From Anaerolineales bacterium UBA3499 (lineage in GTDB: Bacteria; Chloroflexota; Anaerolineae; Anaerolineales; UBA11657): a DNA stretch of 64,000 nucleotides. How positions within the stretch are numbered: the stretch's first letter is position 1; every line of letters starts with the position of its first letter. Shown here piece by piece: positions 13,116 to 34,966 of the stretch. Location: positions 11,715 through 75,714 of the forward strand of contig DFQC01000005.1 of NCBI GenBank assembly GCA_002377585.1, in the 5' to 3' direction. The notes beneath the pieces were generated by a model. That model did no database searches, was not told where the DNA came from, and saw only the letters and a list, made by a program, of their open reading frames with translations. Both the position numbers and the translations under genes were made by a program.

Positions 13116-13154
13116 CCAAAAAGAGGGTGCAATGTTATTACACATTGCACCCTC
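13116..13154 (-). terminator. Rho-independent terminator after the permease gene
   Basis: Perfect 13-bp inverted repeat GAGGGTGCAATGT / ACATTGCACCCTC (13123-13135 / 13142-13154), 6-nt loop. On the minus strand it is followed by TTTTTGG (plus-strand CCAAAAA at 13116-13122). Confidence 0.65.
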
Positions 13155-13203: not shown

Positions 13204-14565
13204 TTAGGATTCTGTTGACGGTTTAAATATCAGAAAGATGGCGTTCATGAAAATACCCATTACTGCAGCTGTAGCAATAGCGGGAAGACCATTAGGAAAT
13301 ACACCTTGCAAGAACGAAATTGGTAAAAAGCCGCCTTCAAAACCAATGTTACCTCCAATACCAACTACCATAATCACGGCACCCACTGCTAGATTGCGAG
13401 GCACAAACATGTTGACTTTGTGTTCTTGCATCAAAGCAATTCCTTGCATACCAACCACACCGAACAAGTATATTGCCAATCCGCCGGTCACTGCTATCGG
13501 CACTGATTGTACTAAACCTGATAGCTTTCCTATAAACCCTAGCAATACTGCTATGACGCCGGCTGAAATCAATGCTGGTCCTGAGTAGTTCCGTGTAATT
13601 GCCATGAGTGAATTATTCTCACCGTAGTTTGTACCAGCTGTAGCACCAGTTAAACCCTTCAAGAAATCGTCAATTCCATCGAGTATAAGATTGAAACCAA
13701 CATACTCAGCCAAATTTGATTTCTCTCTGCCTGCCTCTTCTGCAGTGCGGTCAACATAAAGTCCTATCTGATATAGATGAGCCGTAGATTCAGGTATGGT
13801 TGCAATAGCCATAATTGCGATACTGAAAATTGCAGTACTTACCATAGCACCACTAAAAACCGGAAAAGTGAAGTGTGGAATTTGGAACCATGCTGCGGCA
13901 CCGACCGCACCCATATTAAGGGAACCTGGATCGATAACAGAAGATATCAGACAACCACCAACTGCTCCAAGAAGCACTGGCAACATTCCTATAAATCCCT
14001 TGCCTTGCAGATATACTGAGAACAACACAGTAACCAACAAAGTAGACAATGCTACTCCCCAGTTAGCCCCAGCCATATCAAGAGCAGCAAATGCCAGACC
14101 GAAGCCTATAATGGCTGCAACTGAGCCTGTAACCACCGGGGGCAAAACTTGGTCAAGTTTCGCTTTACCTACAGACCTAATAATCATACCTATGATTATG
14201 TTCAGGACTCCAGTTACAACGATACCTGCCTGCATTGTGCTGATGACATTATCAGGTACGGGCACACCAAACTCAGGAAGACCACCCGTCATTTGGGTAA
14301 CAATTGCTAGATATGCAGCTATGTAACTGAAACTTGATCCATAAAACAAAGGTATAAAAGTACCTAGCCTCCACTTAGACAGTGTCAGCGCAACAACTGT
14401 ACCGACACCAGAAACCACTAAAACAGTACCTACATGGAATCCTGTAAGCGCTGCGACAAAAATTGTCGCAGGAAACATAGTCAACACGTGCTGGAAACCA
14501 AGCAAAACTAACTCGCCAAACGGAGGAACATCGTTTGGAAGATATGTCTTGACAGAATTTGTCAT
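13204..14565 (-). CDS. NCS2/NAT-family nucleobase permease, uracil (UraA/PyrP)-type
   Basis: 453-aa polytopic ORF; NAT signature region TNYGENNSLMAITRNYS closely resembles UraA YGENIGVMAIT (Glu rather than the Gln of xanthine/urate carriers). Confidence 0.85.
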   Translation of the reverse strand: MTNSVKTYLPNDVPPFGELVLLGFQHVLTMFPATIFVAALTGFHVGTVLVVSGVGTVVALTLSKWRLGTFIPLFYGSSFSYIAAYLAIVTQMTGGLPEFGVPVPDNVISTMQAGIVVTGVLNIIIGMIIRSVGKAKLDQVLPPVVTGSVAAIIGFGLAFAALDMAGANWGVALSTLLVTVLFSVYLQGKGFIGMLPVLLGAVGGCLISSVIDPGSLNMGAVGAAAWFQIPHFTFPVFSGAMVSTAIFSIAIMAIATIPESTAHLYQIGLYVDRTAEEAGREKSNLAEYVGFNLILDGIDDFLKGLTGATAGTNYGENNSLMAITRNYSGPALISAGVIAVLLGFIGKLSGLVQSVPIAVTGGLAIYLFGVVGMQGIALMQEHKVNMFVPRNLAVGAVIMVVGIGGNIGFEGGFLPISFLQGVFPNGLPAIATAAVMGIFMNAIFLIFKPSTES

Positions 14566-14747: not shown

Positions 14748-15974
14748 CTAGTATACAAGCTCACCACTTTCTGCAATTATACGACCATGATTAATCACAT
14801 ATTTAGGTGCACGATGAAATCTTAGAGATTCGATTGTAGTAGGAACATCCAGCACAACCAATGAAGCTGCAGAACCCACTTCTAGTTTGTGTGTCGCCAA
14901 ACCCATAGCTTTGGCAGCGCTGGAAGTAATCATGTCATACAAACAATCCATATCCTCTTTCGTAGTCATCCACAACAAATGAGATGCTAAAAATGCCACT
15001 TCTAACATATTGTTCTGACCATATGGATAATATGCATCGCTAATATCATCTTGCCCCAGACACACTAACACTTCTTTTTCAAGCAGATCCTTAACACGAA
15101 CATGCAAAGGGCCAGTATGTGGATCAGTTACTATACCAATACTATTGTCTTTTAAGAGTCTAACCAAATCACTATGGTAACTATCTGGATAAAGTGCCAT
15201 AGCTCTAGCATGATGTGCTAAAACACGACCTTCCCAACCAACCTTCTTCGTAGTCATAGCTAACATTTCCAATGTGCGTAATTTCGCATCACCAACATCG
15301 TCGACCAACATACTAATTGGAGCATCGAATTGAGTTGCAATAGAAAACATTGCATCTATATGACTCTGGGCATCGGAGTCACTATGTTCAATCCAGGGAA
15401 TGCCACCAACCACGTCTGCTCCCATTGACATGGCCTCACGAACCAATATGTCAGCACCTGGCTCCTTGACAACTCCATCTTGCGGAAATGCCACCACCTG
15501 AATGTCAACAATATTGCGAAATTCCTCTCTCAACTCAAGTAGAGCAAATACACCTTCTAGTTTGGCCTTATTATCAACATCCGCAAATGCGCGAATGTGG
15601 GTATTACCATGTATCGCAGCCCAACGTAGAGCAATCCGTACATTTTCAATAATCCAAGATCTATCATATTGTGTTTTTACTCTTGAAGCCAGCTCGATAG
15701 CTGTAGCTGCTGCTGCCATTTGATTCTGATGGTATTTTTCAAGTGCCAATTCATCCAATCGATCCAATGTGAATACCTTGTCTAAGTGAAGATGTGGATT
15801 CACGAAAGACTCGGTTACAAGATTGCTTTCAGCATCAAGTTCAACTTCGGCTACAGGAACATCATTTTTTGATATTGCTGCAATTTTCCCATTTGTTACA
15901 CCAATATGGTACACACTATCTGGTTTACGTCTTAAACGGGCATTTTTTATAGCTAGATCAAATTTAGTACTCAT
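14748..15974 (-). CDS. Metal-dependent amidohydrolase, cytosine deaminase (CodA)/AtzC-like
   Basis: 408-aa ORF; HxH motif in CodA-like context (ESFVNPHLHLDKVFT), amidohydrolase barrel length. Confidence 0.7.
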   Translation of the reverse strand: MSTKFDLAIKNARLRRKPDSVYHIGVTNGKIAAISKNDVPVAEVELDAESNLVTESFVNPHLHLDKVFTLDRLDELALEKYHQNQMAAAATAIELASRVKTQYDRSWIIENVRIALRWAAIHGNTHIRAFADVDNKAKLEGVFALLELREEFRNIVDIQVVAFPQDGVVKEPGADILVREAMSMGADVVGGIPWIEHSDSDAQSHIDAMFSIATQFDAPISMLVDDVGDAKLRTLEMLAMTTKKVGWEGRVLAHHARAMALYPDSYHSDLVRLLKDNSIGIVTDPHTGPLHVRVKDLLEKEVLVCLGQDDISDAYYPYGQNNMLEVAFLASHLLWMTTKEDMDCLYDMITSSAAKAMGLATHKLEVGSAASLVVLDVPTTIESLRFHRAPKYVINHGRIIAESGELVY

Positions 15975-15986
15975 AATATAGGACTC

Positions 15987-16892
15987 CTAATTCAAACTTA
16001 TATGATCGCTCAAACAATCAATCGATAACAAAAAACCTGCCAAAGCATCAGCACCCGACGTATGTCCAAGTGACAAAATATCCATACATGCCCGGGTCAC
16101 ATCTGTAACATTTTCTTTGCATAGAACATCTACAAGCGCATGCCAGTGCTCGCAAGCGTGCCCATTAGCTGACTCTTGCAACATGGCTCCGGACAACATA
16201 GTCGTATGAGATGCAGCAGCAGCTGCAATTGTACGTGACCACCTTGCAGCATCCTTTTGATTAAATATAGACCACAATGCATACATAACACCCACTAAAA
16301 AATCGTCGCCTGCTGGCGTCAAACCAACGCCTAATCCTGCCATATTTGCAGCACTCACATATATTTTTTGTATGTTGCCGCTGACAATTCCTCGATACAA
16401 TTGTTGAGCAGCCTCAGCTACCTTGGTACATACGTACCCCACATTGTCCTTATTTGAACATAACATTGAGCTGAGGCTCTCATCCGAAGCGTTGTTCTGT
16501 ACAGTCAAATATAAATCACGAATATTTTTATTAAAACGATGTGGGCGATCCTTAGGGTAATCCCAATCTACGCGAGCAGACCATAGTGTAGCTTCACTAA
16601 AATCGATTGTCGTCGTATTGACAGTCAAACTATTTTTGCCAACAACAACAGGAGTACCAACAGATAACATTTTTTCTAAACTAAACGGCAATTCCTCAAG
16701 CACCATCGCAAACGGTCCGTTCCCGATTTTATTATGAACAACAGCAATAAATCTACCTTGTTCGTCTATCAAATTGCATACTCTCTCAAAACTTGAAAAT
16801 ACGTGAGCCTTGTTGTTGCTTGATAACCATTCTGCCGCTCCTGTAGAATACGACTGAGATAACAATTGCATTCTATTTCGCAGCTTCAACAA
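15987..16892 (-). CDS. DUF2877-family protein (E. coli YlbF/AllH-like)
   Basis: 301-aa ORF; motifs GLGVGLTPAGDDFLVG and LGHTSGADALAG that I associate with YlbF/DUF2877; co-operonic with FdrA and DUF1116 homologues. The ORF start overlaps the coxL 3' end; an alternative ATG lies at 16871. Confidence 0.55.
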   Translation of the reverse strand: MLKLRNRMQLLSQSYSTGAAEWLSSNNKAHVFSSFERVCNLIDEQGRFIAVVHNKIGNGPFAMVLEELPFSLEKMLSVGTPVVVGKNSLTVNTTTIDFSEATLWSARVDWDYPKDRPHRFNKNIRDLYLTVQNNASDESLSSMLCSNKDNVGYVCTKVAEAAQQLYRGIVSGNIQKIYVSAANMAGLGVGLTPAGDDFLVGVMYALWSIFNQKDAARWSRTIAAAAASHTTMLSGAMLQESANGHACEHWHALVDVLCKENVTDVTRACMDILSLGHTSGADALAGFLLSIDCLSDHISLN

Positions 16893-19212
16893 TTTCCCAA
16901 AGCATGCTAGGACTCAGTGGAATTTCTGTAATCTCTACTTCTGAATCGAACAATGCGTCTTCAATCGCTTGCGCAAAAAGTGCGCCTACGGGAATTGCCC
17001 CAGCTTCTCCTGCACCCTTGATTCCCATTGGATTTAACGGGGATGGGGTAGTAACATGATCTGATTCAATGTTCGGAACATCTAATGCAGTTGGAAGAAG
17101 ATAATCCATGAACGAAGCATTAAGCAATTGACCGCTTTCGTCAAACATTAATTTCTCGTAGAATGCATTACCTATACCTTGAGCAACCCCACCCTGAATC
17201 TGGCCTTCCAAAATCATAGGATTAATCACTTCTCCACAGTCATGAACTACCACATACTTCTTTATATCAACCAACATTGTTTCAGGATCGACTTCAACAA
17301 TCATGGCATGAATACCATTAGCAGTAGCGCCTCGTTCTGGACCAAAGTAATTGGTTGCCTCTAAACCTGGTTCAGTGCCCGGCTTAACAGCACCACGCAT
17401 GGGGTTGGCTCTTCTTGCTAGCTCTCCTAGACCTATACTCCTCTCGTGATCTGATTGTACCCTAGCTACTCCACCTACTAATTCCACTACCTCTTCCTCT
17501 GCCTCCAAAGCATCGACTGCCATCTTTAGTGCTTTAGCCCGAACATCACGCGCGGCTTCATTAAACGCATTTCCCGCAACCACAGCACCACGACTTGCAA
17601 ATGTCCCAGCGCCCCAATAAAACTGATCAGTATCACCAGTGACTATATCTACATCTGACACATCCACCCCTAGCTGGTCAGCAACTATTTGTGCAAAACT
17701 TGTCAAATGGCCTTGCCCTTGAGTGCCGACACCTGTCACCGCAGTCACTTTACCACTAGCTTGGACTTGTACTCGTGCTCCTTCATATGGCCCAATACCT
17801 GTGCCTTCCACATAAGCAACTATACCTAAACCCACATAACGTCCTTCAGATTGCAAAGCCGGCTGGGTTTCTTTGACAAATGTTTCATAATCTATCATGT
17901 CCAGCGCCTTCTTCATTGATGGATCATAGTTCCCACTATCATAAATTAATGGGGCAAAATCCTGGTAAATAATTTCATTGTTATATGGGAACTGATCAGG
18001 CTCAATAAAATTTCTGCGACGTATTTCTGCCCTGTCAATTCCCATTGTACGAGCAGCTATATCTAACAATCTTTCCATCACAAATACTCCATGCTGTCTG
18101 CCGGCACCTCGATATGGTGTGACAATTGGAAAATTAGTGAAAACAGCATCGAATTCGCTATAATAATTTGGGATATGATACGGACCTAGTAAAGTGCATT
18201 GACTGTTTATTGGAACAGTTAATCCGTAGGGCGCATATGCACCTGCATCATGTAAAAACTTATCCCATACTCCCAGAATGAGCCCACTTGAATCCATAGC
18301 TATTTCAGCTGTATGTATCTGACTCCGCTCCTGTGTAGTAGCGAAAAAATTTTCCGACCGATCTTCTATCCATTTAATCGGACGTCCTATTTTCATAGCA
18401 GCCCATGGTAATAACACTTCTTCCTGATAAAACATCATAATCTTGGGGCCAAATCCGCCACCTATAAAAGGAGCGATTACACGCACCTGATTCTCTGAAA
18501 GCTGGAGCATTTCTGCTAGACCATTACGAATAGGGATGGGAGCCTGAGTTGTATCCCAGATAGTCAGGCGCTGAGCTCGCCTATCCCAACTAGCCACAAT
18601 ACCACGGTTCTCCATAGCTGCGGCTGCACCATGATCATAAATAAACTCACGCTTTAAAACACATGCTGCTTCCTTTGCGGCCTCAAAATAATCACCTTTT
18701 GTCTGCACCACATGTGCACAAAGATTACTATCTAAGTCATCATGCACAAGTGCACAATCTGCTTCTAAAGCAGTGCTCAAATCTGCCACCACAGAAAGCG
18801 GATCATAATCGACGTATATATCCTGCAAGGCATCTTCAGCTATGTAACGATCTTCAGCTAACACCATTACTAGGGGTTCGCCTACAAACCTTACTTTTTC
18901 TTTTGCCAAGGGAACTTGTGTCCGTTGATTAAACACAATATCCTCTATAGGAGGAGGTGGTACTAATAAAGGTCCAGGCTGCCAGTAATCACCTAAATCT
19001 GCTGCAGTATACACGGCAACAACTCCTTCACGCTGTAATGCCTGTGAAACATCGATACTCACAATTCGCGCGTGAGCATAAGTGCTTCGCAAAAACGCTG
19101 CATGTAACATTTCCGGCAGCTGAACATCGTCTACAAATAACGCCTGACCAGTTAATAGTTGAGGATCTTCATTGCGTACAATAGGTTGTCCGAAAAACCG
19201 AGTAGAACCCAT
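16873..19212 (-). CDS. Molybdopterin-binding large subunit of a xanthine-dehydrogenase/CoxL-family hydroxylase (form-II-CoxL-like active-site loop)
   Basis: 779-aa ORF; GGGFGPK motif, active-site loop PYRGAGR (18097-18117), C-terminal KGAGEAG with conserved Glu. Confidence 0.85.
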   Translation of the reverse strand: MGSTRFFGQPIVRNEDPQLLTGQALFVDDVQLPEMLHAAFLRSTYAHARIVSIDVSQALQREGVVAVYTAADLGDYWQPGPLLVPPPPIEDIVFNQRTQVPLAKEKVRFVGEPLVMVLAEDRYIAEDALQDIYVDYDPLSVVADLSTALEADCALVHDDLDSNLCAHVVQTKGDYFEAAKEAACVLKREFIYDHGAAAAMENRGIVASWDRRAQRLTIWDTTQAPIPIRNGLAEMLQLSENQVRVIAPFIGGGFGPKIMMFYQEEVLLPWAAMKIGRPIKWIEDRSENFFATTQERSQIHTAEIAMDSSGLILGVWDKFLHDAGAYAPYGLTVPINSQCTLLGPYHIPNYYSEFDAVFTNFPIVTPYRGAGRQHGVFVMERLLDIAARTMGIDRAEIRRRNFIEPDQFPYNNEIIYQDFAPLIYDSGNYDPSMKKALDMIDYETFVKETQPALQSEGRYVGLGIVAYVEGTGIGPYEGARVQVQASGKVTAVTGVGTQGQGHLTSFAQIVADQLGVDVSDVDIVTGDTDQFYWGAGTFASRGAVVAGNAFNEAARDVRAKALKMAVDALEAEEEVVELVGGVARVQSDHERSIGLGELARRANPMRGAVKPGTEPGLEATNYFGPERGATANGIHAMIVEVDPETMLVDIKKYVVVHDCGEVINPMILEGQIQGGVAQGIGNAFYEKLMFDESGQLLNASFMDYLLPTALDVPNIESDHVTTPSPLNPMGIKGAGEAGAIPVGALFAQAIEDALFDSEVEITEIPLSPSMLWEIVEAAK

Positions 19213-19227
19213 CAGATTTACCTCTTG

Positions 19228-20895
19228 TCACTCCCTAAAAGCCACAAATCGACCCCAGCATGAAGCCAACTCCATTCCTTTTTGTACAAAACACCCGACA
19301 AAGTATCGACCACTTTCCATATTTGCTAATGCACCACCCAAATTTTCAGCATGAACAATACCTTTAGGAAACAAGTTGAGATGCATATCTTGATAGTATT
19401 GATCTAAAGGATACATTTCATCCCAATCTTTACCAAATCGTTCGTTGAGTTTCTTTTCTGCCTCATCAAACGTTTTGGGGTGAAACACTCTTTGAATGGT
19501 ATTCATAGGATGTTCCATTGCCACACAATCTATCCCTATCCATTTGATCTTCTTTTCTATACACCAATCAGCAAAATCTGGAGATGGTCCAGGATGTTTG
19601 ATCATATAACGAAACTCATTAGAATCTGGGCTATTCCAACCATACTTACAATACCCTGTCTTTATAATAAGGATGTCATTCTCATGCACATCTACAGCTT
19701 CCTCTATCATCTCAGGAGTATATACACTGGAGTCACTAACCTTATCTGAAATATCAGCTACCGCTCCTGCACCAACCCAATAGTCCAAAGGGGTTTCGCC
19801 TATACTTCTACCACTGATGCTAAAATGTTTTTCGCCGTCCATATGAGTAGCTAAATGAAAGCTAGCCCGACAATTCGCATTGTTTCGACCCATACCAAAG
19901 TTGTGACCTCCAACACGCTTTGTGTAATCAATACTTAAGGGTATGTAATTCGCCCATTGAGGAGTCTGCACACTAAATGGTAAGGTCATATCCAACATCT
20001 CAGCAGTTCCCATAGCAGCAAAGAAGTTGGATGATTCCATTCCATCAGGCGGCAATATAGCTACTGCACGTGACCACGCTGATTCAACCTCCATGAACGG
20101 CAATGGCTGTACCATTACCCAAGCACGCTGATTGCCAATTTCATTGATTTGCCCACCAAGAGACTCAGCCAATAACATGCCTGATTTTGGCATAGTGACA
20201 TGCGTTAACTCATAGTACCAATCCTGAGGAAACAATTCATCCCAATCCTTACCATATACTTCTTGTGCTTTAGCTTGTGCTTTCTCAAATTCCCGTTCAT
20301 GCATATAACGCAAATTGGTGTTCATAGGATGCTCTGCACATCCACAATCCACACCAATTAATTTTATGTTCATGTCCATTGCCCAATCAAAAAATTCTGG
20401 CGAAGGCCCAGGATGCCGAAGATAAAACCCGAACTCCTTATTTTCTATGCCACCTTGTGCAGATTCGTTTAACACATCAGGTTGATCATACCCATACTTG
20501 TGATATCCCGTATTGATTATCAAAATATCGCCCGATTTAACTTCCGCTCGACTCGTTATCATTTCTGGTGTATATAAACTATAGTCGGAAACATCATCAG
20601 AAATATCTACAACCACGCCTTCACCACATAAATCACTCAATGGAATATCAGCAATAGCTCGTTCTCCAGAATGAAAAGCACGAGGTCCTACGAGATGAGT
20701 ACCAGTGTTATTGCTCCATTCAATCAATTGACCATTTGCACCTTGACCGCCAATGAAAGAGCCCGTAAGCCTCTTAAAAAACTGTATCTGCAAAGGCATC
20801 TCTCCCGGCCACGGTGGTGTAAAAATACTCATTGCTTGAGTCAGGTCAAACCATCTTGCATCAGTCATTAAGCGGATAAATTTGTCACTTTGCAT
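19228..20895 (-). CDS. Fused tandem cyclase-family (kynurenine formamidase/isatin hydrolase-like) metal-dependent hydrolase
   Basis: 555-aa ORF made of two homologous ~275-aa halves (e.g. HPGPSPEFFDWAMDMNIKLIGVDCGCAEHPMNT vs HPGPSPDFADWCIEKKIKWIGIDCVAMEHPMNT). The C-terminal half keeps an HxxTHxDxxxH-like motif (FHLATHMDGEKH); the N-terminal half is degenerate (NNTGTHLVGPRAFH). Confidence 0.7.
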   Translation of the reverse strand: MQSDKFIRLMTDARWFDLTQAMSIFTPPWPGEMPLQIQFFKRLTGSFIGGQGANGQLIEWSNNTGTHLVGPRAFHSGERAIADIPLSDLCGEGVVVDISDDVSDYSLYTPEMITSRAEVKSGDILIINTGYHKYGYDQPDVLNESAQGGIENKEFGFYLRHPGPSPEFFDWAMDMNIKLIGVDCGCAEHPMNTNLRYMHEREFEKAQAKAQEVYGKDWDELFPQDWYYELTHVTMPKSGMLLAESLGGQINEIGNQRAWVMVQPLPFMEVESAWSRAVAILPPDGMESSNFFAAMGTAEMLDMTLPFSVQTPQWANYIPLSIDYTKRVGGHNFGMGRNNANCRASFHLATHMDGEKHFSISGRSIGETPLDYWVGAGAVADISDKVSDSSVYTPEMIEEAVDVHENDILIIKTGYCKYGWNSPDSNEFRYMIKHPGPSPDFADWCIEKKIKWIGIDCVAMEHPMNTIQRVFHPKTFDEAEKKLNERFGKDWDEMYPLDQYYQDMHLNLFPKGIVHAENLGGALANMESGRYFVGCFVQKGMELASCWGRFVAFRE

Positions 20896-20938
20896 CTAAA
20901 TCTCCTTTGTTAAACACCATTCACTCAAGTTACACTTT

Positions 20939-22195
20939 TCACACTAAACCATAATGCTCTGCATAAGAGACCAAAGCATCTTCAAATACATTCATTGGAG
21001 GTCGTACTAATCCAGCTCCTACCTGACCAACTCCCGCATCCCTATGAGCAATACCTGTGTTTATACGAGGAGTGATACCCAACTCTACCACTTTGCGGAT
21101 ATCGACTCCGACTGGAGTTCCACGGAAATTCAGTGCTGGGATAGTAAAATGACTGTGCTCAGATACCGTAATCTCGTACATTTCCATAGTAGCATTTATA
21201 GCGTCTTGTGGTGTGCCACTAACAAACGCAACGATTGCTGGCGCAGAAGCCATGGCAAAACCACCGATTCCAACCGTCTCGGTAATGGTACTATCACCTA
21301 TATCACCACTAGCATCCTCAGCAGTAAAACCCGGAAAATACAGACCGTCTGGCTGTCCAACTGGACCTGTAAACCACTTATCTCCTAAGCCACTTATACG
21401 AATCCCTAGTTCAGTACCATTACGAGCCATGATTGTCATTAATGTACTACCATCGACACCATGAGCAGCATCAGCCATAGATTTGCACGCAGCCATTACA
21501 GGATTTAACACACTCAGTGCATTGTCTGCCAGAAATTGTAGCGCTTCGGAAGCAATATTACTATCAATAGCAAGTTTGGTGACCATAGGAGCAAGTTTTG
21601 CAGTATAAAGAATTGATCCCGCTTTATTTCGATTATGACCTTCATCACCCATATGTAATGATTCTGATAGCAACTGTCGAACATCTATTCCATTTTCGCT
21701 CTTCACAAGAGCTTCCGACAAGACCGGAGCCAAAACATCATTCATCCAACGCAATTTTGTGATCACATCATCGCTAAATGCTCCATACCTAAGTACCTTT
21801 CCATATCCTTCGTTTAGATTACTATAGGCAACGTTGCCATGAGTAGTATTAGTCACCTCATAGACTTTCATAGATGCAGTCGTAACTCCAGCCATTGGAC
21901 CAACACTACTGTGCTCGTGGCACGGAGCAAACTTGACTTCACCTGCTTCTACCATACTTACTGCATCAGTTTCATTATCAACCAGGCCTTCAAATATTAA
22001 TCCACCTATCACAGCCCCTTGCATTGGACCAGACATTTGTTCCCACTCAACGGGAGGACCTGCATGCAGCAGCAAATTGTCCTCCATATTTGGAATAACA
22101 TCCCTAGCAGTAGCAATGCCTGTAAGAATAGGACGCGCTGACATCATACGTTCTACAGCTATATCATTTGCTTGATCAATTTTGATTTTTGCCAA
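20939..22195 (-). CDS. DUF1116-family protein (E. coli YlbE/AllG-like)
   Basis: 418-aa ORF; long collinear similarity by eye to E. coli YlbE (LLHAGPP..W..M.GPM.GA, NLNEG.GKV.R.GA, GDS.ITET.GIGG, DIRKVVE.GITP.INTGIAH). Confidence 0.85.
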   Translation of the reverse strand: MAKIKIDQANDIAVERMMSARPILTGIATARDVIPNMEDNLLLHAGPPVEWEQMSGPMQGAVIGGLIFEGLVDNETDAVSMVEAGEVKFAPCHEHSSVGPMAGVTTASMKVYEVTNTTHGNVAYSNLNEGYGKVLRYGAFSDDVITKLRWMNDVLAPVLSEALVKSENGIDVRQLLSESLHMGDEGHNRNKAGSILYTAKLAPMVTKLAIDSNIASEALQFLADNALSVLNPVMAACKSMADAAHGVDGSTLMTIMARNGTELGIRISGLGDKWFTGPVGQPDGLYFPGFTAEDASGDIGDSTITETVGIGGFAMASAPAIVAFVSGTPQDAINATMEMYEITVSEHSHFTIPALNFRGTPVGVDIRKVVELGITPRINTGIAHRDAGVGQVGAGLVRPPMNVFEDALVSYAEHYGLV

Positions 22196-22207
22196 AATTA
22201 CCTCCTA

Positions 22208-23926
22208 TTAGCTTTTCATCTTTGCCAATAAATCCATTAGATTGTCTTTCCCTTGAGCAGGTGGCTGCCAATCAACATGGATTGCCTCAGCGCCTTGTCT
22301 GATTAAACTTTCGTAGAAAGATTCTAATCCTACATTTATGGCCGCCAAAGATTGTCCGGAACTATCCAATACAACCGGTCTTAAGCTCGCTTTTGAGGTT
22401 GTGTTCAATCCGGAAATTATGTTACCAACATAAATTGCCGCCTCATCAGCGTTAGTTTCTATGTGCGCACCTGCTTTCCTCAATATATTTGTTTGAGCAA
22501 CTACATCTTGCGGGTCACTTACGGTTCCAACCACCAATACAACTACTTCCAAGTGACGTCCCGAGCGACGTGCTAGTGATTTGGCCTCAGATATAATCGG
22601 CGCTAATTCGGCCGCAGGGTTTGAGTGTGATCCATAGCCAAGTACTACGTCCAACAATATTACTGCTGTCTCTGGGTCAGCAGCTTCTTGCTTAAAACGC
22701 CTCAAACGCAAATCCGAATCTATCATTGGGTGTAACCGACCAATGGTAAATTCGTCCTCTCCCATATCTATAATTGTATGCTTATGACTAGATGCATGAT
22801 CATCCAGTTTGTATGACTCATCGATAGGAATATTAGAATAAACCCCTGTAGTAAATGCACGCAGGACCAACAAAGTCTCATAAGCCAGAGTACCGCCTGA
22901 AAACAGGCCGCGTATATAGCGCTGTGAAGACGCAAATTTCTTTTGAGAATCCGACTTCATATTAGTGGAAAGGTCCAACTTGTCACATAACTCAATCGCT
23001 AACTTGGCTGCTTCACGTAAGGTAGATGCAAAAAACACATTGCCTATTTGATAGGCTGGGGGAGCATAACCTAGAAAATTAACAACCACCGGTTTTTCTA
23101 GTGCATGCAGTACTTGCATCAACTCCATTGCAGAACGCGATGAGATTGGTTTAGACGTTAATATTATGACCTTAGTATTTGTGTCTCTGTTAAGCACATC
23201 TAGCGCCTGTCGAGAAGTAATACCTCCAACCTGCTGATTCAAATCACGTCCACCAGTACCAATAGCATTGGTTATACCAGAACCTAAGTTGTCAATAGTC
23301 ACGGTTAAAGCCTGTAGTCCTGTACCTGATGCAGCCACAATACCTACCGAACCTGATTGGCTTTGATTTGCAAAACCTAAACCCACTCCATCAATCACAG
23401 CAGTCCCACAATCTGGACCCATAACCAACAATCCTTTGTCTGCTGCCATTGTCTTTAACGACACTTCATCTTCCAGAGAAACGTTGTCACTATAAAGAAA
23501 AACGTGTTTGCCAAAACCAAGAGCTTCACGTGCAACCCCTGCAGCATAACGTCCAGGAACAGAAACTATAACCCATTGACTGTTTGGTAATGTTCTAACA
23601 GCCATATCCAGACTACGAGGACGAAACTCCTGATCATCTGCTATCAACTTACGTTTATTTAGTAATACATCTACATGTTTAAGTGCAGCTGATGCTTGGG
23701 ATACACTGTCAGCCTTAACTGCAATAATGAGGTCCTCTGCCACAGCGATTCTGCAGGAACTCGGTAGTAGTCCACTCTGATCTAACACATCCTTATTAGC
23801 CTGCGTACCCATCATTACTCCAGCATCAAGCACACCATCTAATTCAAGCATACCTTTTTGCAGCTGCATTAACACCACTGAGTCGAAGTATGTACCAGAC
23901 CGTATTTCACCAGTTACGTTTGTCAT
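22208..23926 (-). CDS. FdrA-family protein (succinyl-CoA-synthetase-alpha-like; E. coli FdrA/AllF-like)
   Basis: 572-aa ORF; collinear with E. coli FdrA by eye (YFDSVVLMQL, VMMGTQANK, SDNVSLEDEVSLKT..KGLLVMGPDCGTA, ASGTGLQ, AIGTGGRDL, RLHPMID). Confidence 0.85.
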   Translation of the reverse strand: MTNVTGEIRSGTYFDSVVLMQLQKGMLELDGVLDAGVMMGTQANKDVLDQSGLLPSSCRIAVAEDLIIAVKADSVSQASAALKHVDVLLNKRKLIADDQEFRPRSLDMAVRTLPNSQWVIVSVPGRYAAGVAREALGFGKHVFLYSDNVSLEDEVSLKTMAADKGLLVMGPDCGTAVIDGVGLGFANQSQSGSVGIVAASGTGLQALTVTIDNLGSGITNAIGTGGRDLNQQVGGITSRQALDVLNRDTNTKVIILTSKPISSRSAMELMQVLHALEKPVVVNFLGYAPPAYQIGNVFFASTLREAAKLAIELCDKLDLSTNMKSDSQKKFASSQRYIRGLFSGGTLAYETLLVLRAFTTGVYSNIPIDESYKLDDHASSHKHTIIDMGEDEFTIGRLHPMIDSDLRLRRFKQEAADPETAVILLDVVLGYGSHSNPAAELAPIISEAKSLARRSGRHLEVVVLVVGTVSDPQDVVAQTNILRKAGAHIETNADEAAIYVGNIISGLNTTSKASLRPVVLDSSGQSLAAINVGLESFYESLIRQGAEAIHVDWQPPAQGKDNLMDLLAKMKS

Positions 23927-23943
23927 ATATAACCAATAAATTC

Positions 23944-25245
23944 TTATATAAGTACTGACTCTATTTGTGATGCCAGAAAAAATAGAGTCTCATCTTTTCC
24001 AAAACGACCCGTTAATTGCAACCCAAAGGGCAATCTATCGCCATTCTTGCCAGAGGGCATTCCTATAGTAGGCAAACCACTATGGGTCCAAGGTAAATTC
24101 ATTACGGGATCACCAGTGCTGTCCAACCCATTAGGAGCTACTCCAGGAGCCGAAGGAGATATCCACAAATCTATCTGATTCCGATCCATTAATGCAGTCA
24201 ATTCCTTTCGCAACGTAGACCTACCTTGAAGAGCAACATTTAAATCATGTTCCGAAACTGATTGACCTCTTAATATCAATTCAACAGTTTTGGGATGATA
24301 CTTATTAGTATAACTCGCAAACCAATTCTCATGAACACTCGCTGCTTCGGCAGCCACTAGTAAATTATGTCTAACAAATATATCTTCAAAATCAAGCATG
24401 GCAGTGACTGATTTTATGTCAAACCCAGCGTTAGCAAGTCGATCACAAGTAGCATAAAATTGCATCGTGCCTTCATCAGAAACATTGTCCAGATAAACGC
24501 CTTCTGGTACACCTAAACTTATAGATTGGTTTTCCTTCGTGTCTGTTATTTCTGTGTTCCACTTCTCAACCAACTGTGTAGCTGCACATGCAGCGGTGGC
24601 AACATCAGGAGCAAAAGTACCAACATGATCTACTGAAGGAGATAAAGGTATCACACCAGACCGAGAAATACGATCATAGGTTGGTTTATATCCAACAACA
24701 CCGCAAAAAGCAGCGGGGCGAGTAATTGATCCTATGGTTTGTGTACCTAATGATAGAAGGCATAATCCCGAGCTTACAGCAGCTGCTGATCCGCTACTAG
24801 ATCCACCAGGAGTACATAAAATATTATGTGGGTTCCTTGTAGGGCCAGGTGCAAAGTAAGCGAATTCGGTGGTAATCGTTTTACCTATTACTAGAGCCCC
24901 TGCCTTCTTTAGAAGCGTCACACTTTCAGCTTCAGTGCCTTGCAAAACATCTGTAGGAACATTGCTACCAGCACTAGTAATGTGACCATCTACATGAAAT
25001 ATATCTTTCACTCCTACAATTAATCCAAAAAGAGGAGGACGGTTTTTTGGATCTGGATACTGTTCAAACAATGCTCTAGCTTCAATGCGCAAGCGATTGA
25101 AACGTTCTGACTCAGGAACAAAAGCATATACTTCCTGCTCTTTTAATATAAAGTGGCTTTCCAATTGTTCCAAATAATCTAGGAAATTATTAAAACTACC
25201 GTTCTTGAAACTAGACAATGAACCATTTACCACTGATGACAACAT
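23944..25245 (-). CDS. Amidase-signature (AS) family amidase
   Basis: 433-aa ORF; GGSSSGSAAAV signature with Ser-cisSer-Lys context (GVKDIF). Its start shares nt 25245 with the stop of the 2Fe-2S subunit gene. Confidence 0.85.
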   Translation of the reverse strand: MLSSVVNGSLSSFKNGSFNNFLDYLEQLESHFILKEQEVYAFVPESERFNRLRIEARALFEQYPDPKNRPPLFGLIVGVKDIFHVDGHITSAGSNVPTDVLQGTEAESVTLLKKAGALVIGKTITTEFAYFAPGPTRNPHNILCTPGGSSSGSAAAVSSGLCLLSLGTQTIGSITRPAAFCGVVGYKPTYDRISRSGVIPLSPSVDHVGTFAPDVATAACAATQLVEKWNTEITDTKENQSISLGVPEGVYLDNVSDEGTMQFYATCDRLANAGFDIKSVTAMLDFEDIFVRHNLLVAAEAASVHENWFASYTNKYHPKTVELILRGQSVSEHDLNVALQGRSTLRKELTALMDRNQIDLWISPSAPGVAPNGLDSTGDPVMNLPWTHSGLPTIGMPSGKNGDRLPFGLQLTGRFGKDETLFFLASQIESVLI

Positions 25246-25721
25246 TATGAATCACGCTCCAAATATAGTTTCACAGCATTCACTATGTTTTGATAACCAG
25301 TACACCTACACAAATTTCCAGATATGGCAGCCCGAATTTCTTCTTCCGATGGACTCGGGTTATCATCTAGAAAAGGAATGAGGCTCATCAATATACCTGG
25401 AGTACAAAACCCACATTGCAACCCATGTGCTTCGCGGAATGCTTCTTGAAGGGGATGTAAATCAGTTGCTTTGGTTGCCATACCTTCTACTGTGGTTATT
25501 TGCTGTCCGTGTACCTGTACTGCAAACATCAAGCATGACCTGACAGATATTCCATTTAATATCACAGTGCAGGCCCCGCAAACACCATGTTCGCAACCAA
25601 CATGCGTGCCTGTCAAACCAAGTTCGTGACGTATAAAATCACTTAACAACATGCGCGCTTCTACAGAAGATGTATGTTTTGTGCCATTAATAGTAACCTT
25701 TATCAAATGATTGTCACTCAT
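25245..25721 (-). CDS. [2Fe-2S] small subunit of the Mo-hydroxylase (CoxS/XdhC-iron-sulfur type)
   Basis: 158-aa ORF; plant-type cluster CEHGVCGACTV..C and second cluster CGFCTPG...CRCTGY. Confidence 0.9.
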   Translation of the reverse strand: MSDNHLIKVTINGTKHTSSVEARMLLSDFIRHELGLTGTHVGCEHGVCGACTVILNGISVRSCLMFAVQVHGQQITTVEGMATKATDLHPLQEAFREAHGLQCGFCTPGILMSLIPFLDDNPSPSEEEIRAAISGNLCRCTGYQNIVNAVKLYLERDS

Positions 25722-26596
25722 GTTTCTTTAGCCCGCCCATATGCTAATTTCAATGCTCGCTTAGTTAGTATGCAAGCTAAATGCCTCTGGTAATTTACCG
25801 TAGCATGTAAACTTTCCATCGGCATAATCTCCTCTTCTGAAGCTTTGTTAGCAACTTGACTTATCAGTTCATCCGATAGAGTTTCTCCAACCAGCATATC
25901 AGCTGACTGCTTTGCTTCCAGAGGTGCATCTGATAGATTCAAATACACCAAACGGGCCTTCCTACAAATATAATCACTATCTAACGTTATCACTGCTGCT
26001 ATACCGGCCATGGCGTAATCTCCCGACCGACGAGAAACCTCTAGAAATGCCCACCCAGTAGAGGCCGCATGAAAAGGCACTTCTAATTCAACCAATATTT
26101 CACTAGAGTCAATAGCAGTTTCAAAATACCCTCTAAAAAAATCATCGCTATTAATCCAACGCGATCCATTGGTGGATTGGACCCGAAATCTGGACTTGGT
26201 AGCTAAAGCTACTACCGGAAGCTCGGCAGCTGGATCCGCGTGAGCTATATTCCCACCTACAGTACCTCTATTACGTATCTGAGGATGAGCAATGTAGGGA
26301 AGAGATTCATGTAATAAAGAAACTCTATCAGCAATTAAAGGATCATCCTCAACTTCACTTAGTCGAGTCATAGCACCAATATGTAAAACTGCACTCTCCT
26401 TGGAGGATATATAAGAGAGTTCTGCCAGCAAGTTTAAGTCAAGCAGCACAGTAGGTTGCATTATACGGAAATTCATAGCCGGAATTAGACTCTGCCCACC
26501 TGCCAGAATTCTGGCTTCATCACCATACTGTGCTTTCAGCACCAATGCTTCTTCCAATGACTCAGGTGCATAATATTTGAAGCTTGCTGGTTTCAT
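25718..26596 (-). CDS. FAD-binding medium subunit of the Mo-hydroxylase (CoxM type)
   Basis: 292-aa ORF; FAD-binding PCMH domain (LAGGQSLIP, GTVGGNIAHADP); 4-nt overlap with the downstream small-subunit gene. Confidence 0.85.
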   Translation of the reverse strand: MKPASFKYYAPESLEEALVLKAQYGDEARILAGGQSLIPAMNFRIMQPTVLLDLNLLAELSYISSKESAVLHIGAMTRLSEVEDDPLIADRVSLLHESLPYIAHPQIRNRGTVGGNIAHADPAAELPVVALATKSRFRVQSTNGSRWINSDDFFRGYFETAIDSSEILVELEVPFHAASTGWAFLEVSRRSGDYAMAGIAAVITLDSDYICRKARLVYLNLSDAPLEAKQSADMLVGETLSDELISQVANKASEEEIMPMESLHATVNYQRHLACILTKRALKLAYGRAKET

Positions 26597-26770
26597 TTAT
26601 GTTTTGGTCATGTAAGTAATTTCTAGAGACATTGTATAATGCCGTACCAATGCAATTTATCACACAATCCCGAATATAATTTATCTTACCGTAAGGATTT
26701 GCGATTATATCATTAACAGTGTGACCATTTATCAAAGTTTATACAATCTAGATTTGTAGCGAGGAATAGC

Positions 26771-27973
26771 ATGAGTGTGGCAAACAATCTACTTAAAAAC
26801 ATATGTGTAGTTGATCTAACACGAGTATTAGCAGGACCATATTGCACAATGATGTTGGGAGATCTAGGAGCAGATGTAATAAAAATCGAGGTTCCTGGCA
26901 GAGGTGATGATACTCGTCATTGGGGACCTCCATTTACAGAAGGGGGTGAGTCCGCATATTATCTAAGTGCTAATCGCAACAAACGTAGTCTGACACTAAA
27001 TCTAAAATCAGCACAAGGATTGGAAATCCTCAAAAAATTGATTGCTAAAGGTGATGTGCTTGTAGATAATTTTAAGACAGGAACACTATCGCGCTGGGGA
27101 TTAGATTACGAGACTTTACAAGAAATCCGTCCTGGATTGATATATTGCACAGTTACTGGATACGGCTACACTGGCCCTTATAGCTCTAGACCAGGCTATG
27201 ACTTAATAGTACAGGCCACAGGAGGCTTTATGAGCATCACTGGACCAGAAAATGGCGATCCGAGCAGAGCCGGAGTTGCAATTGCTGACATCAGCACAGG
27301 AATGTTTGCATCAAACGCCATTCTTGCGGCACTATATTCACGCGAAAAAACCGGTGAGGGACAACGTATAGATATGTCATTGCTTGACAGTCAAGTAGCT
27401 CTATTATCTTACGCAGCTACCAATTATTTCGTTTCGGGCTCAATTACTAATAGACTAGGCAATGCCCATCCGAACATCGTTCCTTATCAATCATTCAAGG
27501 CTCAAGATATGCACTTTGTTCTAGCAGTCGGGAACGATAAACAATGGGAAATATTTTGCAAATCCATCAATAAGCCTGAATGGATTGATGATGAAAAATA
27601 CTCAACAAACGCACTTCGCGTCAACAACAGGAGACAGTTGATAGATCAACTTAACAAATTGTTCGCAACGCAGAATGCAGGATACTGGTTGGAGATATTT
27701 GATAAAGTTGGTTTACCATCAGGTCCAATCAATGAACTGGATAAAGTATTTGAAAATGAACAGATAAAGTCACGTGAAATGCAGATTGAGCTACCTCATT
27801 CCATAGACAATAAAGTCACTCTCCTTAATTCTCCGATTAAGATTCCCACATCTCCTACCAAAACACACAAAGCACCACCAACCCTAGGAGAACACACTGA
27901 AGAAATACTAAAGGAAAAAATTGGCCTTGATCAAGATGCTGTAGCCAAACTTAGGGATGAGGGAATATTGTGA
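26771..27973 (+). CDS. Family III CoA-transferase (CaiB/BaiF family)
   Basis: 400-aa ORF; typical N-terminus VVDLTRVLAGPYCTMMLGDLGADVIKIE and GNAHPNIVPY region. Confidence 0.85.
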   Translation: MSVANNLLKNICVVDLTRVLAGPYCTMMLGDLGADVIKIEVPGRGDDTRHWGPPFTEGGESAYYLSANRNKRSLTLNLKSAQGLEILKKLIAKGDVLVDNFKTGTLSRWGLDYETLQEIRPGLIYCTVTGYGYTGPYSSRPGYDLIVQATGGFMSITGPENGDPSRAGVAIADISTGMFASNAILAALYSREKTGEGQRIDMSLLDSQVALLSYAATNYFVSGSITNRLGNAHPNIVPYQSFKAQDMHFVLAVGNDKQWEIFCKSINKPEWIDDEKYSTNALRVNNRRQLIDQLNKLFATQNAGYWLEIFDKVGLPSGPINELDKVFENEQIKSREMQIELPHSIDNKVTLLNSPIKIPTSPTKTHKAPPTLGEHTEEILKEKIGLDQDAVAKLRDEGIL

Positions 27974-29053
27974 TTAAATAGATACGCCTACAATATCCCC
28001 AACACTATCCACACCTAAATTCTCTAGCTCGTTAGCGATCCCTAGCTTTATTTGACGGATAAGCCCAGGACCACGATAAACTAAACCTGTATACACTTGT
28101 ACCAAACTAGCACCTGATCGAATTTTATCCAAAGCAGCTCTAGAGCTGTCAATGCCACCAACCCCAATAATCGGAAGTTGTCCACCGGTCTGCCTGTAAA
28201 TATGCCGAATAATATTGTTGGATCTATCATGTAATGGTCTACCACTAAGACCACCTTTTTCAATATGCCTTGGATAACTTAGTCCACCACGATTAAGACT
28301 ACTGTTGGTCGCTATCAAACCAGAGACACCATGCCTAACAACTATATCCAACAAATTATCAAGATCCGAAATTGTAATATCAGGACTAATCTTTACAAGC
28401 AAAGGTCTATCAGGACACACTTCTGCATGAAGCTCCATGACGGGCAACAAAAACCCCTCTAGTAGTTCGTGTCCTTGCAATGCCCTTAAACCTGGAGTAT
28501 TGGGCGAACTTATATTTACAACTAGATAGTCAACTAGATGTTGAAGTCTATCAATCATCTTAGTGTAGTCAGACACTGATTGTTCTAGAGCAGTATCACT
28601 CCCCTTCCCAATATTTAGGCCTAAACGAATGCTCCTGGGCTTTGCAAGTCTTGGAGCGACTGTCTCCATACCATGATTTGGAAATCCCATACGGTTTATC
28701 AAAGCGCTATCTTCTGACAGCCGAAATATACGAGGACGTTGATTTCCATACTGAGAACTTGGAGTAATTGTCCCTACCTCTACATGTCCAGCTCCCAGAA
28801 TACCAAGTCCATCTACCGCTATGGCATTTTTGTCATAACCTGCTGCAATACCTACCGGATTTACAAATCGTAAGCCAAACACACTCGTAACAAGTCGTGG
28901 GTTATTGTAATCAAACAAGTGATTTAACCAGCGACGCACTGGTTTAAATTTAGGCGCTACTGACAGCAAATACAAGGATATATTATGAGCAATTTCGGGG
29001 TCTAATCTAAATAAAACATGGCGCAGTGCTCTATATCCTGACTGCTGCATCAC
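27974..29053 (-). CDS. pyrD: Dihydroorotate dehydrogenase (quinone), class 2
   Basis: 359-aa ORF; N-terminal membrane-association extension, MGFPNHG, catalytic-Ser context VNISSPNTPGLR, C-terminal GGI...GASLVQ.YTG. Confidence 0.9.
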   Translation of the reverse strand: MMQQSGYRALRHVLFRLDPEIAHNISLYLLSVAPKFKPVRRWLNHLFDYNNPRLVTSVFGLRFVNPVGIAAGYDKNAIAVDGLGILGAGHVEVGTITPSSQYGNQRPRIFRLSEDSALINRMGFPNHGMETVAPRLAKPRSIRLGLNIGKGSDTALEQSVSDYTKMIDRLQHLVDYLVVNISSPNTPGLRALQGHELLEGFLLPVMELHAEVCPDRPLLVKISPDITISDLDNLLDIVVRHGVSGLIATNSSLNRGGLSYPRHIEKGGLSGRPLHDRSNNIIRHIYRQTGGQLPIIGVGGIDSSRAALDKIRSGASLVQVYTGLVYRGPGLIRQIKLGIANELENLGVDSVGDIVGVSI

Positions 29054-29059
29054 AATATC

Positions 29060-31422: not shown

Positions 31423-31486
31423 ACTGATCCCATGTGATTTGACATTGTCTAGTTTACTAATCTTAATCGATATGATACTACTATTG

Positions 31487-34918: not shown

Positions 34919-34966
34919 TCCGCTTTTGAATACAGCAGAGATGCATTTTCAAGTTATTTGTAAACA

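Follow-up and report, generated by a model that had tools for sequence, protein, structure and literature searches.

A conserved cluster of Mo-hydroxylase, double cyclase and AllFGH-like genes in a marine Anaerolineales bacterium: a candidate urea-free form of the oxidative pyrimidine pathway

The classical oxidative pathway of pyrimidine catabolism, whose biochemistry comes from Rhodococcus, Mycobacterium and Nocardia, proceeds through uracil/thymine dehydrogenase, barbiturase and ureidomalonase; neither a gene assignment nor a reference sequence for uracil/thymine dehydrogenase was found in the literature. In Escherichia coli, the purified AllFGH proteins catalyse the reaction oxamate + carbamoyl phosphate = oxalurate + Pi and are required for oxamate formation in vivo (PMC11326118). 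The 64-kb stretch of DNA analysed here (the window; contig DFQC01000005.1, positions 11,715 to 75,714) belongs to the marine uncultured Anaerolineales bacterium UBA3499 (Chloroflexota) and contains an operon in which the genes of a CoxLMS-type molybdenum (Mo) hydroxylase, a triad of AllF, AllG and AllH homologues, an amidase and a fused double cyclase are found together. This cluster most probably encodes an oxidative pyrimidine pathway of a new form, which does without urea. The contig was recovered by assembly from several Tara Oceans samples, and its cyclase gene is 99% identical to the copy of the metagenome-assembled genome (MAG) UBA3001.

The open reading frames (ORFs) of the window were listed and assigned to families by Pfam and NCBIfam profile searches, which bore out the coordinates, the minus strand and the family of every gene given in a preliminary description of this DNA. 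That description counted ten genes between 14748 and 26596: the ten genes are indeed co-directional, but this fragment shows nine closely spaced ORFs, all of them on the minus strand, and the tenth, encoding an NCS2 permease, is located beyond a gap of 182 nt. The genes of the operon and the divergent CoA-transferase gene are as follows.

26771-27973, plus strand: family III CoA-transferase, divergent from the operon (PF02515, 437 bits)
25718-26596, minus strand: CoxM, FAD-binding medium subunit of the Mo-hydroxylase (FAD_binding_5, CO_deh_flav_C)
25245-25721, minus strand: CoxS, [2Fe-2S] small subunit of the Mo-hydroxylase (Fer2, Fer2_2)
23944-25245, minus strand: amidase-signature (AS) amidase (PF01425)
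22208-23926, minus strand: AllF/FdrA-like subunit, resembling succinyl-CoA synthetase alpha (NCBIfam FdrA, 514 bits with a cutoff of 433; PF00549/PF02629)
20939-22195, minus strand: AllG/DUF1116-like subunit (PF06545, 301 bits)
19228-20895, minus strand: fused double cyclase of 555 aa (two PF04199 domains)
16873-19212, minus strand: CoxL, Mo-cofactor large subunit (hammerhead domain Ald_Xan_dh_C, MoCoBD_1/2)
15987-16871 (16892 with a TTG start), minus strand: AllH/DUF2877-like subunit (PF11392, 89 bits)
14748-15974, minus strand: CodA/AtzC-like amidohydrolase (Amidohydro_3)
13204-14565, minus strand: NCS2 nucleobase permease, last gene of the transcription unit (Xan_ur_permease)

The coordinates agree with the overlaps and short gaps described before: CoxM and CoxS overlap by 4 nt, CoxS and the amidase share nt 25245, and the remaining gaps are of 43 nt or less. 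A further overlap of 20 nt between CoxL and AllH (16873-16892) exists only with the TTG start of the longest ORF. It is lost with the ATG at 16871, which is the start chosen by gene callers on the identical sequence (294 aa), and the CoxL/AllH junction then reads TAG-A-ATG.

When one genome was scanned for each GTDB species, 506 species genomes proved to encode the double cyclase. The 80 best cyclase loci were compared with all the window proteins, and co-occurrence was counted in those 40 loci whose cyclase gene has flanks of 6 kb or more on both sides. Together with the cyclase, AllG is found in 32 of these loci, AllF and CoxL in 28 each, CoxS in 26 and CoxM in 25, and 25 of the 40 contain AllF, AllG and CoxL at the same time; AllG is mostly immediately upstream of the cyclase. 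This association of the cyclase, the triad and CoxL is far beyond chance, and the neighbourhood survey suggested in the preliminary description shows it to be widely conserved. The cluster spans Chloroflexota, Puniceispirillum, Verrucomicrobia and a PVC-group bacterium, and has at least three gene orders. T1, the order of the window, is CoxM-CoxS-AS amidase-AllF-AllG-cyclase-CoxL. T2, which includes a Puniceispirillum MAG, shows AllH on the opposite strand, CoA-transferase, AllF, a CN-hydrolase, AllG, cyclase, an NmrA-like gene, CoxM-CoxS-CoxL-CoxG and a permease. T3 shows AllF-AllG-cyclase, a second, XdhA-like Mo-hydroxylase, an NmrA-like gene and CoxMSL-CoxG. CoxG homologues are located after CoxL in both T2 and T3. 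In the PVC-group contig L098, AllF, AllH and an NCS1 permease are divergent from AllG-cyclase-CoxMSL. Since the linkage is found across these three orders and the PVC-group contig, it survives rearrangement and phylum boundaries. The CoxLMS and FdrA/DUF1116/DUF2877 sets had been described as interrupting each other, which is true of the window, but the order is lineage-specific: the interleaving belongs to T1, and other lineages have contiguous CoxMSL genes.

Other loci contain part of the cluster or additional genes. Two cultured actinomycetes, Nonomuraea gerenzanensis (L091, 5662-24164) and Embleya sp. NBC_00888 (L092, 8833-24591), show AllH-AllF-AllG divergent from permease-CoxM-CoxS-CoxL-CoxG, with no cyclase. 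In Embleya, a CN-hydrolase gene follows CoxG, a gene encoding a PucR-family regulator is between the two gene sets, XdhC and CoxE genes are present and a carbamate kinase gene lies 9 kb off. The PucR family takes its name from purine catabolism. An XdhA-like Mo-hydroxylase with an RGFG loop is located beside the cyclase and the triad in L033 (12064-15793) and L066 (13071-15482), and likewise in L036, L037, L048, L049, L053, L058 and L086. In some genomes the cyclase lacks the triad and stands beside transporters. In two of the triad-less loci, L099 (27-2757) and L100 (20498-21671), the double cyclase has genes of corrinoid methyltransferase systems in its vicinity (MttB, DUF1638, RACo or a pterin-binding protein). 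The second of them, L100, contains in addition a single-domain cyclase directly upstream of the double cyclase, and a lone CoxL nearby. The neighbours of triad-less cyclases were only transporters, unrelated genes and, in these two loci, MttB-type genes, and no conclusion was drawn from them.

The Mo-hydroxylase shows the complete architecture of the xanthine oxidase family, with the hammerhead and two MoCo domains in the L subunit, the FAD domain in M and two [2Fe-2S] domains in S. The active-site loop of CoxL is TPYRGAGR, without Cys, and a GAGEAG segment close to the C terminus contains a Glu. A loop of the form TP[Y/V/F]RGAGR is found in 54 of 54 cluster-linked CoxL orthologues and in both actinomycete copies, and Cys in none of them. 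Form I carbon monoxide (CO) dehydrogenase is defined by an (A/S)YRCS(F/L)R loop with a Cu-binding Cys, and in 2026 the activity of non-form-I CoxL was described as unresolved (PMC13240472). CoxL of the window is not a form I enzyme, because its TPYRGAGR loop lacks the Cu-binding Cys. It resembles form II ('putative') CoxL and the N-heterocycle hydroxylases in its three subunits, its RGAGR-type loop and the lack of that Cys, but it forms a clade of its own by identity values: members of the cluster-linked set share 60-97% identity, and none of the plasmid or chromid homologues found exceeds 47%. CoxLMS is proposed as a candidate N-heterocycle hydroxylase acting on uracil or thymine. The best NCBIfam model for CoxL is 'CODH_aero_grp5', at 935.8 bits with a cutoff of 950, and as the score is just under the cutoff, close CoxL relatives could easily be annotated as CO dehydrogenase. 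Automatic annotation of Cys-less CoxL relatives as aerobic CO dehydrogenase is a hazard for environmental surveys of CO oxidisers.

The two halves of the double cyclase, each matched by PF04199, are 41% identical to each other. The C-terminal half retains the metal motif HLATHMDGEKH, and a single-domain homologue of Haloarcula shows HTGTHLDGEKH in the same place; the gene of this Haloarcula homologue lies near two NCS2 permease genes. The N-terminal half lacks the HxGTHxDxPxH motif and shows NNTGTHLVGPRAFH instead (residues 61-75), which is invariant in 25 homologues, as is an EHPMN motif in the same half (residues 187-193). The invariance of both segments points to another site with a function, and not to decay. 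AlphaFold gives a cyclase model of moderate confidence (predicted local distance difference test, pLDDT, 70.5; predicted template modelling score, pTM, 0.76), with ill-defined metal-motif loops. Foldseek relates it to isatin hydrolase and KynB with a probability of 1.0; all its matches are single-domain isatin hydrolases, kynurenine formamidases or related hydrolases of about 16% identity, and it returned no two-domain relative, none being solved or characterised. KynB and isatin hydrolase cleave amide or lactam bonds. The window enzyme shares their fold and, in its C-terminal half, the HxxTHxDxxxH-type metal motif, but it differs from them in being a tandem fusion, in the non-canonical motif of the N-terminal half and in the low identity. 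It looks like a pseudo-dimer that keeps a single canonical metal site, and is proposed to be a ring-opening amidohydrolase. Homologues from Chloroflexota, Acidobacteriota, the PVC group and other groups show 74-84% identity.

The three families of the AllF/AllG/AllH trio (FdrA, DUF1116 and DUF2877) are all present in the operon, with their genes split by others. AllG matches PDB 3CLQ with 430 bits, and AllF matches PDB 3DMY, which is E. coli FdrA. The statement in the preliminary description that fdrA-ylbE-ylbF encode the oxamate carbamoyltransferase AllFGH proved to be correct (PMC11326118). With tblastn probes, the window proteins are 36%, 48% and 25% identical to E. coli AllF, AllG and AllH, and 42%, 49% and 29% identical to E. 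coli YahF, YahG and YahE, the last over a partial alignment, so that AllF and AllG of the window seem marginally nearer to YahF and YahG than to their E. coli namesakes. The yah genes form an uncharacterised allFGHK paralogue in E. coli K-12 (335925-342507), which contains yahE-yahF-yahG, yahI (carbamate-kinase-like) and yahJ (amidohydrolase). Like the window, the yah cluster shows a paralogous triad adjoining an Amidohydro-family enzyme, but it carries yahI, has neither Mo-hydroxylase nor cyclase, and its YahJ is only 25% identical to the CodA-like protein of the window. E. coli AllFGH/AllK (PMC11326118) and the window share the same three families found together and, as proposed here, the same type of reaction, in which an N-acylurea and phosphate give carbamoyl phosphate and a primary amide. 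The window differs in the separation of the subunit genes by other genes, in the identities given above, and in the fate of the amide: oxamate is the end product in E. coli, whereas in the window the amide is proposed to be hydrolysed further.

The window also lacks the companions of AllFGH. Probing the window and 88 related loci with E. coli AllK and YahI (tblastn, within 10 kb) revealed no carbamate kinase homologue, the only match being the gene 9 kb from the Embleya variant cluster. In the same window and loci, AllC, AllD and AllE probes had no match and AllB matched only a PyrC-like dihydroorotase (26%). The Pfam matches of the window genes include no barbiturase/AtzD, uricase or urease domain, and the DHO_dh gene of the window encodes a class-2 PyrD, not a dihydropyrimidine dehydrogenase. 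The absences of carbamate kinase, barbiturase, allantoinase, uricase and dihydropyrimidine dehydrogenase noted previously in the window hold by these probes, the Pfam lists and the PyrD class. Given that no carbamate kinase is linked, carbamoyl phosphate is probably used for biosynthesis, and the aspartate transcarbamylase (ATCase) encoded by the adjacent pyrB is the obvious candidate consumer. A pyr operon adjoins the cluster also in the Anaerolineales loci L042 (10902-14464) and L052 (17240-21666), with another gene order. Common descent of the gene order could explain this adjacency, or carbamoyl phosphate could connect the two sets functionally.

The closest characterised structure to the AS amidase is malonamidase E2 (MAE2) of Bradyrhizobium japonicum, with a full-length match of 154 bits; GatA, biuret hydrolase and allophanate hydrolase score clearly lower. 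The segments GVKDI, GGSSSGSAAAV and GTQTIGSITRPAA of the window protein align with GIKDI, GGSSSGSAAAV and GTQTGGSVIRPAA of MAE2. Both proteins keep the Ser-cisSer-Lys triad, with the catalytic Lys and the Ser-rich loop, and share the motif GTQTxGSxxRP, an unusual GS-x-x-R-P spacing in which an Arg is three residues past the nucleophile Ser; in MAE2 this Arg is, we assume, the residue that binds the substrate carboxylate. On the other side, the match is moderate and an uncharacterised Thermus amidase, which has the usual GSIRIP spacing, scores equally. To our knowledge, MAE2 has no part in pyrimidine catabolism. Malonamate or methylmalonamate is the proposed substrate of the AS amidase, with the acid and NH3 as products. 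In the T2 clusters the place of the AS amidase is filled by a CN-hydrolase of the nitrilase superfamily, for which formamidase, nitrilase, N-carbamoylputrescine amidase and aliphatic amidase are the top NCBIfam models, each scoring far under its cutoff. The exchange of one amidase for the other is compatible with hydrolysis of a simple primary amide after a cleavage of the oxamate carbamoyltransferase type, although it does not establish it. The best NCBIfam model for the CoA-transferase is succinate--glutarate CoA-transferase, under its cutoff; the CoA:oxalate and formyl-CoA transferase models score about 280-300 bits, less than succinate--glutarate and mesaconate. In 15 other loci the cluster is flanked by a homologue that shares 42-63% identity. 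The proposed function of the enzyme is the activation of malonate or methylmalonate, the dicarboxylate in which the route would end.

The NCBIfam ranking of the permease is uracil permease, then RutG, then PbuX. In an alignment with E. coli UraA, RutG, XanQ and UacT, it shows IPESTAHL (the E-x-x-x-H pair of TM8) and YGENNSLMAITR (E-N, a NAT signature motif with Glu in first place) as in UraA and RutG, and differs from XanQ, with E...D and Q-N, and from UacT, with E...M and Q-N. The same E...H / E-N pattern is found in the T2 and Embleya permeases. The equivalents in UraA are E241, H245 and E290, which are presumably the substrate-binding residues that set the choice of substrate. These residues favour a permease of the uracil/pyrimidine type, not of the xanthine/urate type. 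Genes near some clusters fit the same substrates. L014 contains a gene of the PsuG family, the pseudouridine-5'-phosphate glycosidase that releases uracil, with a Bmp nucleoside ABC transporter; Bmp ABC genes are found also in L026 and L033. In L018, genes encoding MeaB and methylmalonyl-CoA mutase are beside permease-AllG-cyclase. A thiamine-dependent or malonyl-CoA decarboxylase was also sought beside the variant clusters, and the candidate ORFs were discarded as methionyl-tRNA synthetase, ABC components and regulators. Carboxyl-transferase genes (AccA/AccD or decarboxylase-type) lie near the cluster in the PVC-group contig L098 (1-1816) and in Embleya L092 (32839-33996); they could encode a malonyl-/methylmalonyl-CoA decarboxylase or a housekeeping acetyl-CoA carboxylase, and are too weak as evidence.

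We infer from gene content, gene association, motifs and family memberships the following substrates and reactions. The UraA/RutG-type NCS2 permease would import the base, uracil and/or thymine. CoxLMS, matured by the XdhC encoded nearby, would hydroxylate C6 to give barbiturate or 5-methylbarbiturate, and the double cyclase-fold metallohydrolase would open the ring to the N-acylurea ureidomalonate. The AllF/AllG/AllH-like complex would cleave this acylurea with phosphate into carbamoyl phosphate and malonamate, as modelled on the oxalurate reaction. The MAE2-like amidase, or the CN-hydrolase in T2, would then give NH3 and malonate or methylmalonate, from which the divergent family III CoA-transferase would form the CoA thioester. 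This route has in common with the classical oxidative pathway the proposed Mo/FAD/FeS hydroxylation to barbiturate, the hydrolysis to ureidomalonate and malonate as carbon product. It differs from it in two points: the window shows no barbiturase of the AtzD/TrzD 'Toblerone' fold, the double cyclase being in its place, and no urease, and the proposed phosphate cleavage and a separate amidase would replace the urea-forming ureidomalonase. With respect to ureidomalonase, the AS amidase of the window is nearest to malonamidase E2.

That the operon degrades an N-heterocycle by hydroxylation, ring hydrolysis, acylurea phosphorolysis and amide hydrolysis is, on this evidence, likely. A pyrimidine substrate is favoured by the permease residues, the MAE2-like amidase, the amidase exchange and the nucleoside/pseudouridine and methylmalonyl neighbours. 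The conserved gene association and the divergent family III CoA-transferase also speak for the route of the preliminary description. This route is the best explanation, although uracil or thymine as the particular substrate is about as probable as not. The joint reading, in which the widespread, form II-like CoxL clade, easily taken for CO dehydrogenase in metagenomes of sea and soil, is uracil/thymine dehydrogenase, the double cyclase a new barbiturase, the AllFGH paralogue a ureidomalonate phosphorylase, and carbamoyl phosphate feeds the pyrB operon, is tentative and, taken as a whole, somewhat doubtful.

Several observations weigh against the pyrimidine route. The substrates of the cluster proteins are assigned from sequence comparison. 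Oxalurate is the sole proven substrate of the triad, and the window triad is no closer to AllFGH than to YahEFG. The XdhA-like hydroxylase supplements CoxLMS in some lineages and replaces it in others, the clusters of the cultured actinomycetes show no cyclase, and that of Embleya has the PucR-family regulator. Solitary cyclase genes stand beside transporters, so that the cyclase could act on a compound taken up by the cell and not on barbiturate. The confidence of the cyclase model is only moderate, with poorly resolved metal-motif loops. NmrA-like orthologues of 47-55% identity, whose PDB relatives are generic reductases, are located between the cyclase and CoxM in 24 loci, and this conserved member of the cluster has no role in the proposed route. 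The CodA-like protein scores 198 bits against AtzC and 187 bits against CodA in PDB, with NCBIfam scores under the cutoffs; it keeps the equivalents of HxH, Gln156, His246 and Asp-Asp, but shows Leu at CodA His214, a metal ligand, and Asp at Glu217, which is catalytic. It lacks these two CodA residues and was rejected as an ordinary cytosine deaminase. The gene recurs in the closest relatives of the window only, and is a peripheral member of the cluster. Deamination by the CodA-like enzyme, proposed before as the first step, is consequently doubtful. The gene content and chemical logic of the earlier route survive the computational tests, but it did not consider the NmrA-like reductase and leaves the cyclase-less and XdhA-like variants unaccounted for.

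Three other explanations were weighed. In one of them, CoxLMS would be a divergent aerobic CO dehydrogenase serving energy supply, with N-catabolic neighbours merely co-located and no joint pathway. CODH_aero_grp5 is its best NCBIfam match, the nearest solved structure is a CO dehydrogenase, at about the same score as quinoline 2-oxidoreductase and 6-hydroxypseudooxynicotine dehydrogenase, and the window contains the accessory genes CoxG and XdhC. Nevertheless, the score remains under the curated cutoff, the Cu-binding Cys is missing in all 54 orthologues, the window shows no CoxD, CoxE or CoxF genes, and the linkage of CoxL with the cyclase and the triad is kept through several rearrangements and phyla. 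Both the active-site loop and the conserved synteny led to the rejection of the CO dehydrogenase reading, which is very improbable. The same solved relatives, which act on quinoline and nicotine-derived pyridines, suit a route for another N-heterocycle (pyridine, pteridine, triazine or a methylated base) in which the cyclase would be a formamidase or lactamase and the triad would carry out acyl-phosphate or CoA-dependent chemistry, not carbamoyl transfer. FdrA has the succinyl-CoA-synthetase-alpha fold with a CoA-binding domain, the triad is as near to uncharacterised YahEFG as to AllFGH, the CodA-like protein is equally near to AtzC and CodA, and two loci show solitary cyclase genes near MttB-type methyltransferase genes. 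However, the linked transporters all belong to nucleobase or nucleoside families (UraA-type NCS2, NCS1, Bmp ABC), no ring-cleaving dioxygenase or pyridine-pathway monooxygenase is linked, the interchangeable small-amide amidase suits acylurea cleavage, and triazine rings offer no C-H to a Mo-hydroxylase. We consider a substrate of this kind quite improbable.

An oxalurate route, in turn, would take a purine-derived ureide or a five-membered ring through hydroxylation and NmrA-type dehydrogenation to parabanate, which an isatin-hydrolase-like opening by the cyclase would convert to oxalurate; the triad would then be a true oxamate carbamoyltransferase, the amidase would turn oxamate into oxalate and the CoA-transferase would give oxalyl-CoA. 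It agrees with the only proven AllFGH substrate (PMC11326118), supplies a role for the conserved NmrA-like enzyme, and fits a cyclase fold nearest to isatin hydrolase, an opener of alpha-keto-lactams; the CoA:oxalate and formyl-CoA transferase matches, the PucR-family regulator of Embleya and the XdhA-like second hydroxylase of some loci are also on its side. The genes that such a route calls to mind are nevertheless missing, since allantoinase, allantoate amidohydrolase, ureidoglycine aminohydrolase and ureidoglycolate dehydrogenase are absent from the window and the 88 loci, no uricase domain was seen, and neither was an oxalyl-CoA decarboxylase. The permease residues are of the pyrimidine and not the xanthine/urate type, the amidase is closest to malonamidase E2, the CoA-transferase scores higher on the succinate--glutarate and mesaconate models than on those for oxalate, and there is no known natural substrate that gives parabanate by means of a Mo-hydroxylase. 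The oxalurate route is the main rival of the pyrimidine route, but it is unlikely.

Beyond the operon and the CoA-transferase gene, the window contains the following features.

26597-26770, strand not applicable: AT-rich divergent promoter region between CoxM and the CoA-transferase (read from the sequence)
13118-13154, minus strand: hairpin resembling an intrinsic terminator, a perfect 13-bp stem followed by TTTTT, 50 bases past the permease stop
12187-13032, minus strand: CN-hydrolase of a downstream unit (PF00795; N-carbamoylputrescine amidase, 260 bits, below cutoff)
10775-12076, minus strand: class III aminotransferase of the downstream unit (PF00202)
9897-10769, minus strand: NmrA-like NAD(P)-dependent reductase of the downstream unit (PF05368)
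27974-32554, minus strand: pyrC-like gene, pyrB, pyrF-pyrE fusion and pyrD, a de novo pyrimidine operon (Pfam/NCBIfam)
32580-36361, minus strand: glycolate or D-lactate oxidase genes resembling GlcF, GlcE and GlcD, flanked by the pyr genes and XdhC
36372-37394, minus strand: XdhC-type Mo-cofactor insertion chaperone (XdhC_CoxI, XdhC_C)
42384-42827, minus strand: CoxG-like SRPBCC protein (PF06240)

The probable transcript spans from 26596 to about 13120, past the CodA-like gene, because the unit continues into the permease gene and then shows the 13-bp hairpin and TTTTT. In the intergenic region between CoxM and the CoA-transferase, an inverted repeat TTGTATAA ... TTATACAA (26631-26750), with arms about 100 nt apart, may be a binding site for a regulator. 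No regulator gene is found within the cluster of the window, and an Rfam scan of 9-45 kb returned a tRNA only and no riboswitch; a promoter scan gave fewer sites than shuffled sequence and is uninformative. The CN-hydrolase at 12187-13032 is possibly associated with the operon, and the linkage of the class III aminotransferase, which recurs in close relatives only, is weak. The NCBIfam scores of PyrD and PyrB exceed the cutoffs, and the score of PyrC comes to within 0.5 bit. In addition to the XdhC, CoxG and GlcDEF-like genes, the window contains an acetyl-CoA synthetase gene, and the remaining genes are housekeeping. A GlcF homologue is near the cluster in L009, as are the GlcDEF-like genes in the window. 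A MoaA-like radical SAM gene (113-1117) and a ThiS/MoaD-like gene (40311-40622) are also present, and this fits a local demand for Mo-cofactor supply. Two ORFs, at 40707-42308 (533 aa, beside CoxG) and 8230-8898 (222 aa), show no Pfam or NCBIfam match.

Full-text literature searches found no paper describing this cluster, in agreement with the earlier view that the arrangement had not been described; an RB-TnSeq study of P. putida and a paper on reductive uric acid breakdown do not bear on it. The pathway logic and the enzyme families are known and their combination is undescribed; the new roles that we infer are those of the cyclase-fold ring hydrolase and of a second AllFGH-type substrate. 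If the pyrimidine route is true, genes would be assigned to uracil/thymine dehydrogenase, and the AllFGH-type transcarbamylase, discovered in 2024, would have a second physiological role, which would give a lead on E. coli yahEFG. The two-domain cyclase-fold enzyme, found in more than 500 species genomes and 74-84% identical across phyla, would receive its first function. One CoxL-like clade would drop out of the environmental counts of CO oxidisers, and this would bear on the function of non-form-I CoxL. Oligotrophic marine bacteria would recover both pyrimidine ring nitrogens without urease, and the ureido group of non-salvageable pyrimidines would be recycled into new nucleotides through the adjacent pyrB operon.

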